Below, in pieces: positions 55,407-58,590 of a stretch of DNA of 61,310 nucleotides; within the stretch, counting starts at the first letter, position 1; each line of letters starts with the position of its first letter. The position numbers and the translations under genes are program-made. The stretch is from Methanobrevibacter sp. (GTDB lineage: Archaea > Methanobacteriota > Methanobacteria > Methanobacteriales > Methanobacteriaceae): assembly GCF_045126245.1 (NCBI RefSeq), contig NZ_JBGVOG010000020.1:1-61310 (forward strand). The letters are read 5' to 3'. The notes beneath the pieces were generated by a model. The model was not told where the DNA came from. It ran no database searches and was given only the letters and a program-made list of their open reading frames with translations.

Positions 55407-57299
55407 ATGATTTTAAGCATTATCATTCCTACATACAATGAGGAAGAATACCTTCCGGTTCTCTTAGAGAGCATTAAAAAACAAAGTTTTACCGATTATG
55501 AAGTTATTGTAGCTGATGCTAATTCAACCGACAACACCAGAAAAATCGCTGAAGAATATGGCTGTATTGTAGTTGATGGTGGTCTTCCGGGCGTAGGTAG
55601 AAATAATGGTGCGAAAGTGGCCAAAGGAGAATATCTGCTGTTTTTAGATTCTGATTTGGAGCTTACTGACGATTACCTGAGGGATGTCTTATACGAATTC
55701 AGAATGGAACATCTCGGAATAGCCATTACTCAAATGCTTCCGATGTCAAATAAAGTTGAGGACAAACTGTTCCACGATTTCGCCAATTACTTCATGATTG
55801 GTGTTGAAAATATAAAGCCCCACGGTGCAGGATGTTATGGAATAATCTCTCGAAAAGAACTGCACGATGAATGTGAGGGATTCGATGAATCCTTAACTTT
55901 CGGTGAAGATACCGATTATATTGAAAGGTTGGCCAAAAAAGGAAGGTTTAAAGTTCTAAGAAATGCAAAAATTGGCGTTTCGACCAGAAGGCTTGAAGAG
56001 GAAGGCATAACAACATTAATTAGACAATATGGAACAAGTACTGTTAATGACTTTTTAGGAAAAAGAACCGACGCCAAGGAACTTAACTATAATTTTGACC
56101 ATGGACATGAAAGAATTACACCTAAGAGATTTGAGAATCTGGAAAAAAGAGTAGAACAGATTAATGACATAAAAGAAAGCTACGACAAATCTATTGCACG
56201 CATTAACAATACCCGATCCCGAATAAAATCTAGCCACCGTCAAAGAGACAGGAAAGTTGTGTTTTACTGCGTTTGCGGTGAGGGAATGGGACATGCAATA
56301 AGGACTAGTGTAATTGTCGATAAAATCAAAGAAAAATATGACGTATACCTTTTTTCAAGTGACAGGGCTTATGAATACTTAAAATCCAAATTTGACAATG
56401 TCTATGAAATAGGCGGATTCAACACCGTCTATATCAACAACAAGGTAAATAACCTAAAAACATTATCAGATGCGATAAAAAGAAATCCAACCAACATCAA
56501 GGTAGGATATGAGAACCTATATAAAAAAGCTGCACAGCTGAAGCCTGATGTCATTGTAACTGATTTTGAAATATATGCTACAATGCTTTCCAAAATACGC
56601 AATATTCCATTAATCAGCTTAGACAATATTCACATGATTACACAAACCAAAATTGACTATCCTAAAAGCCATTATGTTGAAATGCTTAAAGCGAAAGGAG
56701 TCATAAAAACCTATGTTGTGAATCCAAGAATCCACATTTTAACAAGTTTCTTTTATCCAAAAATCCGGGCAAAGAAAAATGCCGTAATATATCCTCCAAT
56801 CATCCGTGAAGAAATTCTAAAAATGGAACCCAAAGAAGGAAACCATATTATCGTATATCAGACAAGCCGTGAAAGTGAAAAACTTGTTGGTAGACTTAAG
56901 GCACTTAAAGATGAACAGTTTATCGTGTACGGATTTGATAAAGAAGAGACTGACGGAAACTTATGTTATAAACACTTTAATGAAGATGAATTTTATGATG
57001 ATCTTGCCTCTGCAAAAGCAGTAATCTGCAACGGAGGATTCACTTTTATCTCCGAAGCCATACATCTTAAAAAGCCAATCTATTCTGTGCCTGCGGTTGG
57101 AAACTTCGAACAAACATTAAACGGATTTTACGTGCAAAAATTAGGCTATGGGGAGTATCATGAAGTAATGAGTGCTAAAAGAGTGGCCAATTTCTTAAAA
57201 AGACTTCCAAAATATCAAAAAAGACTTGCTAAAGTTAAAAAGACAAATAACGATGGAATCGTCCAAGAGTTAATCTATAGAATCGAAAAATATTCCTAA
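55407..57299 (+). CDS. Fused glycosyltransferase: GT2 (GT-A) plus MJ1255/MurG-like (GT-B)
   Basis: SIIIPTYNEE, VADANSTD, RNNGA, FLDSD, GEDTD; then GEGMGHA.R, VTDFE, NGGFTFISEA, FEQ..N. Confidence 0.88.
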   Translation: MILSIIIPTYNEEEYLPVLLESIKKQSFTDYEVIVADANSTDNTRKIAEEYGCIVVDGGLPGVGRNNGAKVAKGEYLLFLDSDLELTDDYLRDVLYEFRMEHLGIAITQMLPMSNKVEDKLFHDFANYFMIGVENIKPHGAGCYGIISRKELHDECEGFDESLTFGEDTDYIERLAKKGRFKVLRNAKIGVSTRRLEEEGITTLIRQYGTSTVNDFLGKRTDAKELNYNFDHGHERITPKRFENLEKRVEQINDIKESYDKSIARINNTRSRIKSSHRQRDRKVVFYCVCGEGMGHAIRTSVIVDKIKEKYDVYLFSSDRAYEYLKSKFDNVYEIGGFNTVYINNKVNNLKTLSDAIKRNPTNIKVGYENLYKKAAQLKPDVIVTDFEIYATMLSKIRNIPLISLDNIHMITQTKIDYPKSHYVEMLKAKGVIKTYVVNPRIHILTSFFYPKIRAKKNAVIYPPIIREEILKMEPKEGNHIIVYQTSRESEKLVGRLKALKDEQFIVYGFDKEETDGNLCYKHFNEDEFYDDLASAKAVICNGGFTFISEAIHLKKPIYSVPAVGNFEQTLNGFYVQKLGYGEYHEVMSAKRVANFLKRLPKYQKRLAKVKKTNNDGIVQELIYRIEKYS

Positions 57300-57325
57300 T
57301 AAAAAAAGATAAAAAAAACGAGTGT

Positions 57326-58318
57326 TTATAAAGTAACACCCATTTCCAATTGTTCTGTTAATTCTTTGTATCTGTTACGGATAGTAACTTCGGTTACACC
57401 CGCAATATCTGCAACATCCCTTTGTGTTTTTCTCTCACCAAGCAAAACAGAAGCGATGTATAATGCGGCTGCAGCCACACCGGTAGGGCCTCTTCCTGAA
57501 GTCAAACCTTTTTCCATAGCTTTTTCAATAATTTCAATAGCTTTGGATTGTGCTTCACCTGATAATCCCAGTTCTGATGCGAACCTTGGAACGTAATCTA
57601 CTGGAGAAGTTGGTGGTAACTTAATATTTAATTCACGGGTCAAAAACCTGTAAGTTCTTCCCACTTCTTTTTTGGTAACTCTAGACACTTCAGCAATTTC
57701 ATCCAAGGTACGTGGCACATTACAACGACGACATGCAGCATATAAAGAAGCGGCAACTACACCTTCAATACTTCTTCCCCTGATTAACTTATTATCTACT
57801 GCACTTCTATAAACTACAGATGCTGCTTCCCTTACACTTCTTGGAAGACCTAATCTTGAAGAGTCACGGTCAAGTTCACTTAAAGCAAACGCCAGGTTCC
57901 TTTCTGTAGCGCCGGAAATTCTGATTTTCCTTTGCCATTTTCTTAACCTATACCATTGAGCACGGTTTCTTGCAGGAATATCCCGACCGTAAATATCCTT
58001 ATTTCTCCAGTCGATCATTGTACTCAAACCTTTATCGTGAATAGTGTAAGTAATTGGAGCTCCAACTCTTGTACGTTTATCTCTTTGTTCGTGGTCAAAT
58101 GCTCTCCATTCAGGACCCATATCTACAAGATTTTCATCAATAACCAATCCACAACGAGCACAAACGACTTCTGCTCTTTCATAGTCTCCGATTAATTCTT
58201 CTGAACCACATTCAGGACAAATAGTTTGTTTATTATCTTCAAATACTCTTTCTTGAATTGGTTCGTTTACAGCTCTCCTACGTCTTCTGCTAGGAGTTTC
58301 CTTTACTTCTTGTGTCGT
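57326..58318 (-). CDS. tfb: Transcription initiation factor IIB; non-canonical start (ACG 58318 or ATT 58258)
   Basis: Zn ribbon CPECG...CARCG in frame upstream of the track's [36 protein letters not shown]. Confidence 0.92.
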
Positions 58319-58590
58319 GTTTTCATCCTCCTTTTTTTAGGTTTTTTGGATTTTGGTTTTGATACAAATAGTTTTTCACCACAATTCTTTGCAATCATAT
58401 CTCTATCTGCTGATTTAAATAAACGAATAGAGATGTATGGTTTTTTTGTTGGTCCAAAAACATAACTGACCTTCCCAATTTTGTTCTTATTACTATCAAA
58501 AACAATTCCGCCAGCAGTTGGTGTTTTAGAAGATCTAGCTATTAATTTACCAGAGTTTGCAATATGCAAACTGTTTCCTAAGAATTTCAT
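58303..58590 (-). CDS. gar1: Gar1/Naf1 family H/ACA RNP protein
   Basis: LG..LH...[19 protein letters not shown]; adjacent to tfb as is common in Euryarchaeota. Confidence 0.85.

Follow-up and report, generated by a model that had tools for sequence, protein, structure and literature searches.

An ACG codon behind a Shine-Dalgarno motif is the probable start of the transcription factor gene tfb in Methanobrevibacter

The tfb gene of a Methanobrevibacter sp. very probably initiates at an ACG codon (58318-58316) under the direction of a Shine-Dalgarno (SD) sequence, which would yield a TFB of 330 residues, and the same appears to hold for nearly the whole genus. The window analyzed here is the entire stretch of 61,310 nt of contig NZ_JBGVOG010000020.1 (assembly GCF_045126245.1). 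For comparison, tfb loci were taken from 40 relatives of the window's genome, from genome contigs (79) and from metagenomes (80 loci). A sequence-only reading of this DNA had described a tfb frame without ATG, GTG or TTG until 58147. This description is exact, and the coordinates it gave for the upstream TAA, the GGAGG, the ACG and an alternative ATT were all confirmed. Its main proposal, that TFB is made from a near-cognate ACG positioned behind the GGAGG inside the 3' end of gar1, is strongly supported by the comparison with relatives. The features of the locus are listed in Table 1.

Table 1. Features of the gar1-tfb locus in the window
Feature	Position	Strand	Evidence or remark
Proposed tfb coding sequence, ACG start, 330 codons, TAA stop 57328-57326	57326..58318	-	Pfam and comparison of relatives
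Proposed tfb initiation codon ACG	58316..58318	-	ACG in 98/99 loci and in 95/97 resolved genus genomes
Shine-Dalgarno GGAGG (AGGAGG with 58332), 8 nt upstream of the ACG, within gar1 codons AGG AGG	58327..58331	-	
In-frame TAA, upstream limit of the tfb frame	58337..58339	-	TAA or TAG at the same place in most relatives
gar1 (H/ACA RNP protein Gar1), 95 codons from ATG 58590, stop TAA 58305-58303	58303..58590	-	PF04410
Alternative gar1 start TTG	58611	-	
gar1/tfb overlap, 16 nt; tfb frame is the gar1 frame shifted by -1	58303..58318	-	
Predicted TFB N-terminal extension, 32 codons between ACG and first Cys	58220..58315	-	In frame in 98 loci
Basic stretch ETPSRRRRR within the extension	58274-58300	-	
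TFB zinc ribbon CPEC...CARC	58151..58219	-	PF08271, residues 39-80 of P0001
TTG, first canonical in-frame tfb codon, behind the zinc ribbon, not the real start	58145..58147	-	Codon index 63
ATT, alternative start of the earlier reading, rejected	58256..58258	-	1/42 aligned loci
ATG abutting the GGAGG, gar1 frame, Met of the Gar1 tail, not a tfb start	58324..58326	-	

The product of the tfb frame has the architecture of archaeal TFB/TFIIB, with an N-terminal zinc ribbon (PF08271, E = 1.1e-18) ahead of two cyclin-like TFIIB repeats (two stretches of PF00382, E = 3.3e-48). The four zinc-ribbon cysteines occupy codon indices 39, 42, 58 and 61. The upstream gene encodes a protein with the Gar1/Naf1 RNA-binding domain (E = 8.4e-10, 38.8 bits compared to a cutoff of 29.3), and the corresponding proteins of relatives start with MKFLGN. 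Read in the gar1 frame, the ACG consists of the third base of an ACA and the first two bases of a CGA, and in most relatives the gar1 stop follows 13 nt after the A of the ACG. At its other end, tfb converges on a plus-strand ORF of 630 aa (55407-57299) that is glycosyltransferase-like at its beginning; approximately 26 nt rich in T runs (57300-57326) lie between the two stops.

Among the records L001-L110, 99 distinct orthologous loci remained after removal of 10 duplicates and three paralogue records (L018b, L087b and L031). The nearest named record, from a Methanobrevibacter sp. MAG (L032), had a protein identity of 98%. An SD-like motif (GGAGG, GGGGG, GGAGAG and similar) followed by an in-frame ACG was present in 98 of these 99 loci, and the sole exception, L020 of genome G017, has an ATT at the position of the ACG. 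In 38 of the 98 ACG loci as well as in L020, the stretch from the upstream in-frame stop to the first Cys of the zinc ribbon contains no ATG, GTG or TTG, leaving no canonical start ahead of this conserved and indispensable N-terminal domain. In the remaining 60 loci, canonical codons occur at widely differing positions, from codon -46 to codon +34 as counted from the ACG, and these species could use such a codon instead.

The census of the genus comprised 103 genomes, 97 of which were resolved by a readable locus. The 17-nt pattern AGGAGGATGARANCACG, which ends in the ACG, occurred once each in 78 of the 103 genomes, while the reversed control gave no match. Another 17 genomes carry the ACG behind a variant SD or spacer (G002, G011, G014, G016, G018, G019, G042, G043, G044, G058, G060, G062, G089, G108, G110, G112 and G118). 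Altogether, ACG was found in 95 of the 97 resolved genomes, ATT in one (G017) and ATG in one (G109). In the other six genomes, which are 66-93% complete (G005, G012, G045, G055, G064 and G073), no tfb orthologue was found. In the metagenome set, SD and ACG were present in 50 of 80 loci. At L141 the ACG immediately follows the SD, and L117 has an ATG exactly at the ACG position behind GAGAGAG, with the same spacing and a database protein beginning with MNEELK. The N-terminal part is missing from four other metagenome loci, a contig end truncates two more, and the remaining ones belong to different lineages with long N-terminal forms, plain-ATG forms or membership in distant classes.

The only substitutions observed at the ACG codon were ATT (G017) and ATG (G109 and L117), all of them start-capable, and no other codon occurred among the 97 genus genomes. 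Across species, the same codon is held at a fixed functional distance from the SD, beyond what coding constraint accounts for. The ATGs in G109 and L117 confirm the codon as the predicted start site, as opposed to an error in the window. Given that the other genera of the order have the ACG as well, these ATGs represent the derived and rare state. In G109, the ATG turns the gar1 codon into TGA, resulting in an ATGA overlap. As a change from ACG to ATG would create this TGA, gar1 may account for some of the resistance to ATG.

We considered whether gar1 coding explains the ACG. In gar1, the A of the ACG occupies the third position of a codon that is freely variable at its first position. The tfb codon preceding the ACG is ACC in 41, AAC in 23, AGC in 13, GAA in nine, AAA in five and ATC in three of the 98 loci, with four singletons. 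For the 42 loci that align without gaps, the column entropy is 0/0/0 at the ACG compared to a high value at the middle base of the preceding codon. ACG accounts for only 2.3% of the Thr codons and CGA, its reading in the gar1 frame, for 3.1% of the Arg codons in 673 long ORFs of this genome. As an internal control, the conserved Thr at +31 is encoded by ACT in 20, ACA in 13 and ACC in seven loci and never by ACG, while codon 0 is ACG in 42 of 42. The occurrence of ACG in 98 of 99 loci despite the rarity of the codon is far beyond chance.

In six loci (L096, L108, L109, L104, L097 and L091), the SD is preceded by AT-rich DNA with stops in all frames, and gar1, where visible, ends tens to approximately 190 nt upstream; SD and ACG are kept in all of them. 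Two of these loci, L096 and L109, combine a non-overlapping gar1 with the complete absence of a canonical tfb start and have still kept the ACG. In some loci gar1 is located well upstream or is absent within 330 nt, again with SD and ACG in place. The overlap with gar1 is not the only thing that keeps the ACG, and the coding of gar1 provides no explanation for it. A tie of TFB to gar1 translation, which the sequence-only reading had envisaged, is probably not required, as loci without the overlap keep SD and ACG. Upstream of the ACG in L096, L108 and L109 (150-330 nt), three to four copies of a repeat of the type TTCTCTATTT...TTAGGGA were observed, possibly promoter or regulator sites. In L101 and L102, gar1 stops just before the SD, and a seven-codon mini-ORF in another frame (ATG GAG ATG GTA ACA CGG TAA) covers SD and ACG.

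The segment behind the ACG has features of a translated sequence. Among the 98 loci, ACG and first Cys are 17 to 47 codons apart, with 15 different lengths observed, all of them in whole codons. Stops within this segment occur in frame +2 in 96 loci and in frame +1 in 35 loci, with none in the tfb frame. In the N-terminal extension, the mean column entropies by codon position are 0.89, 0.98 and 1.20, with third positions being the most variable. The corresponding values for the zinc ribbon are 0.14, 0.12 and 0.80, its first and second positions being almost invariant, and strong purifying selection acts on the zinc-ribbon codons. The motif P(+8)-x-R(+10)-G(+11)-R(+12)-x-R(+14), in which codons vary synonymously (CCT/CCA/CCC; R(+12) CGT 19 / CGC 13), is conserved within the extension. 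It is positioned upstream of many of the scattered ATGs, and in 32 of the 42 ungapped loci the interval from the ACG to P(+8) is free of canonical codons. From this pattern of variation, the segment downstream of the ACG is under coding constraint and most likely translated. The basic N-terminal extension that had been suspected from the run of arginines is supported by the maintained frame and by the conserved P-x-R-G/R-R motif with its synonymous codon changes.

These data also bear on the trivial explanations, namely that the ACG arose from an error in sequencing or assembly or from a private mutation, or that TFB is made only from a TTG or ATG behind the zinc ribbon. Gene callers do output proteins of the latter kind: P0085 (264 aa) and P0056 (276 aa) start with MGPEWRAF and have no zinc-ribbon Pfam match. 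A protein of this type is at odds with the strong purifying selection on the zinc-ribbon codons and with the many genus genomes that gave only one tfb match (among them G003, G006, G009 and G010, with one match each). An error or private mutation, for which ATG in relatives had been named as the telling sign, is opposed by the presence of the same codon in 95 of 97 resolved genomes; ATG was found in only one of these, G109, and in the metagenome locus L117. We regard error, private mutation and truncated TFB as refuted by the comparison, the probability left to them being negligible.

The spacing of SD and ACG was compared to that of other genes in this genome. Among 63 ATG genes led by GGAGG, the distance from SD to start was 6 nt in 14, 7 nt in 26 and 8 nt in 10 (50 of 63 in total; mode 7), and the 8-nt spacing of the ACG is normal for this genome. 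The anti-SD sequence was assumed, because the 3' end of the 16S rRNA was not found in the assembly. A strict screen for start codons 6-9 nt behind a GGAGG, which had to open a frame of 150 codons or more and to have no canonical start upstream in that frame, returned ATG 54, TTG 12, ATT seven, GTG two and ACG one times, the single ACG being that of tfb itself. With a looser screen, ACG was again restricted to tfb among cases whose first canonical start is at least 15 codons downstream, and ATT was obtained 34 times compared to 19 for ATA and seven for ATC. In this genome, ATT seems to serve as a minor start codon. Candidate ATT starts are located in the window's genome assembly G000 (coordinates of the scanned strand) at C95:1803 (+), C56:19831 (-), C111:15222 (+), C43:3634 (+), C63:1070 (+) and C118:243 (+).

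Two other codons near the tfb 5' end were rejected as starts. The ATT at 58258, which had been put forward as the alternative to the ACG, turned out to be private to the window among the 42 loci aligned without gaps, and the nearest SD-like motif, AGGAGAG (~58280-58274), is about 15 nt away from it, outside the usual 6-8 nt. The ATG at 58326 would have to be combined with a frame change. It is absent in L018 and replaced by GTG in L015 and L017, and its zero spacing from the SD was seen in only one of 63 gene starts. A structured RNA element at the start site is not supported either, as the fold of 58240-58370 had a z-score of -0.06 and no Rfam match was obtained at E up to 1.

The overlap of the two genes raises the possibility of termination-reinitiation, by which ribosomes ending at the gar1 stop would re-initiate backwards and the ACG would be tolerated only through this coupling. 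The 16-nt overlap and the constant position of the gar1 stop in most loci are in line with this, and contigs from RNA libraries bridge both genes (X18 record 23, X20 record 27), which is not proof of one transcript. Reinitiation has been documented in archaea (PMC6728339; PMC10666635), and another report describes the gar1-tfb synteny as conserved in archaea (bioRxiv 10.64898/2026.09.06.749720). However, loci without overlap keep SD and ACG with a canonical start being absent (L096, L109) or none being nearby, and coupling to gar1 is probably not required, given that these lineages keep the ACG. Furthermore, according to PMC10666635, short overlaps (-4, -1) were efficient and an overlap of -8 nt was less so. 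Reinitiation concerns the delivery of ribosomes and is compatible with initiation of tfb at the ACG codon. It may contribute where the genes overlap; as the reason why the ACG is tolerated, we consider it improbable.

Even less probable is C-to-U editing of the ACG in the mRNA to a normal AUG, as it occurs in plant organelles. A single change would suffice, and the codon is invariant at the DNA level. However, the RNA-library contig X15 record 6 (58190-58331) has no differences from the DNA, with the restriction that metatranscriptome libraries may contain DNA, and no G>A at 58317 was among the differences listed for the metatranscriptome contigs, to which the same restriction applies. In addition, the ATT of G017 could not be converted to AUG by such editing. 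To our knowledge, no editing system for archaeal mRNA has been described.

We give slightly less credit still, and very little overall, to a programmed -1 frameshift from gar1 into the tfb frame, which would lead to a Gar1-TFB fusion. The tfb frame is indeed the gar1 frame shifted by -1, and the tfb frame of the window opens exactly at a stretch of seven A ahead of the SD. Against this, the gar1 frame has no X XXY YYZ heptamer at this site (CCT AAA AAA AGG), the A run is absent in L015 and L017 (CCT AGG AAG AGG AGG GTG), and no conserved slippery heptamer with the downstream frame open across it was found. An in-frame stop between SD and ACG, two codons before the ACG, is present in L105, L140, L103, L137 and L143, and lineages without gar1 overlap keep the same tfb 5' end. 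A fusion would explain neither the conservation of the ACG nor its replacement by ATT or ATG.

Initiation at the ACG, the reading we prefer, may extend beyond the genus. The loci L023-L030 from two other genera of the order, L103 and L107 (Methanobacteriaceae) and many metagenome loci follow the scheme NNG GGG GCG AAG GAA ACG AAG GAR AAA ATG A. Besides the SD-like GGGGG and the ACG, these loci possess an ATG located 4-5 codons further downstream, which forms an ATGA overlap with the gar1 stop. An ATG four codons after the ACG with the same overlap also occurs in 17 of the 98 loci, the window having GTA instead. In addition, the loci of other genera often have an ATG, GTG or TTG five codons upstream of the ACG. 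In some loci (L142, L144, L152 and L172), this upstream position is occupied by CTG, ACG or GCG; it is separated by TAA in L103, L137 and L143, and the downstream ATG is replaced by CTA or ATA in L142, L144, L150 and L155. The ACG is invariant in all loci of this type. G039, from another family of the same class, reads GGAGGAGAGAAAA ACG AAA ATGA, and G040, from another class, has a plain ATG and no ACG. The SD-ACG unit seems to predate the genus. In the other genera with their nearby ATG, the ACG may be conserved for another reason.

Paralogues of tfb and divergent tfb lineages were observed along with the orthologous loci. The window's own genome contains a second tfb (L031, C28:1107-2021) that is 76% identical and has an ordinary start, with GGAGG, 7 nt and ATG. 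In some species a second paralogue is arranged in tandem (L018b / L087b, G002:C15:12421-13371, directly downstream of tfb; L209, G108:C7:12258-13196). This copy reads GGAGGG ATT ATT ATA AAA or GGAGGA GTT ATT ATA AAA, and the first canonical start behind the SD is an ATG located 13 codons ahead of the zinc ribbon; an ATA or ATT may serve as a non-canonical start of this copy. In the metagenome loci L153, L156, L157, L159 and L161, more than 170 open codons precede the zinc ribbon in the tfb frame. The TFB of this lineage is predicted to carry a long N-terminal extension, because the corresponding database proteins (P0018-P0037) are 529-588 aa in length with TFIIB and zinc-ribbon domains as their only Pfam matches.

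Taken together, we propose that the gar1-tfb transcript carries the AGGAGG inside the last gar1 codons and that the small ribosomal subunit would bind there. The initiator Met-tRNA would thereby come to lie on the ACG, 8 nt downstream, and pair with a single mismatch, at the middle base; the product would be the 330-residue TFB with a basic tail of 32 residues in front of the zinc ribbon. The model implies that the initiator tRNA can read ACG and that selection maintains the weak start, possibly as a means of setting or regulating the level of TFB. The arrangement would be old within the order, because other genera keep the same SD and ACG beside canonical ATGs.

Bacterial infC is regulated through its AUU start, and ACG initiation occurs in AAV VP2 and Sendai virus C'. 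Like infC and other bacterial genes with rare starts, tfb encodes an essential gene-expression factor and has a conserved one-mismatch codon behind a ribosome-binding site that is not replaced by AUG. In contrast to infC, the mismatch in tfb is at the middle base and the host is an archaeon with aIF1/aIF1A/aIF2; TFB is a transcription factor, not a fidelity factor, and no autoregulatory loop is evident. With the eukaryotic and viral cases tfb would share an ACG read by the initiator Met-tRNA. In contrast to these, the site would be selected by SD pairing, not by scanning and Kozak context, and in many species the ACG would be the gene's only start and not that of an alternative isoform. We know of middle-base-mismatch starts otherwise only from eukaryotes and their viruses. 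In E. coli, GFP with an ACG start was produced at full length with an N-terminal Met, in one culture also Thr, according to bioRxiv 10.1101/063800, and SD-led ACG initiation is therefore physically possible; this was an engineered bacterial reporter with one expression level among several, not a natural conserved start. The overlap of tfb with the gar1 3' end resembles the archaeal ATGA pairs as described in PMC6728339 and PMC10666635. Unlike in these pairs, the overlap in the window measures 16 nt to the proposed start, this start is not canonical, and the downstream ATG is a GTA.

Non-AUG translation has been reviewed (PMC5666671). Archaeal initiation factors are homologous to the eukaryotic ones (PMC6237735), and aIF1 discriminates against non-AUG codons (PMC4705826, PMC6237735). 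In a ribosome-profiling study on Haloferax, approximately 30% of the putative alternative initiation sites were near-cognate and were set aside by the authors (PMC7261190). Within open-access text, we found neither a description of ACG initiation in archaea nor a paper dealing with the tfb start of Methanobrevibacter. Near-cognate starts as such are already known; what makes tfb notable is the codon itself, its occurrence in an archaeon, the essential nature of the gene, how deeply the start is conserved and how systematically it has been mis-annotated. The database N-termini of these genes differ (MKEVPRRGRK, MANRQVDVYDD, MGDKRQRDVY, MNTKEGLS and MGPEWRAF, the last without zinc ribbon), and the MNTKEGLS start corresponds to an ATT two codons before the ACG in loci of the L096 type.

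In the human gut and in the rumen, the main methanogens are Methanobrevibacter species, and TFB is required in every round of archaeal transcription initiation. If the ACG start is correct, the annotation of tfb in this genus would be wrong or inconsistent, ranging from arbitrary internal ATGs to forms without the zinc ribbon. Mis-annotated N-termini would affect recombinant and structural work on TFB, and gene finders that forbid ACG would keep missing such starts. We further suggest, tentatively and with more doubt than confidence, that the ACG is the ancestral functional start of the main tfb throughout the Methanobacteriales, including the genera annotated with ATG, and that it is a deliberately inefficient, stringency-sensitive start held by selection, which would make tfb the first natural ACG-initiated prokaryotic gene described. 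In that case, TFB synthesis would track the state of the translation initiation machinery (aIF1, supply of initiator tRNA) and, where the genes overlap, also the expression of the ribosome-biogenesis gene gar1. Should the ACG start hold, archaea would use a start codon with a mismatch at the middle base, and tfb would offer a case in which the translational control of a general transcription factor can be tested.
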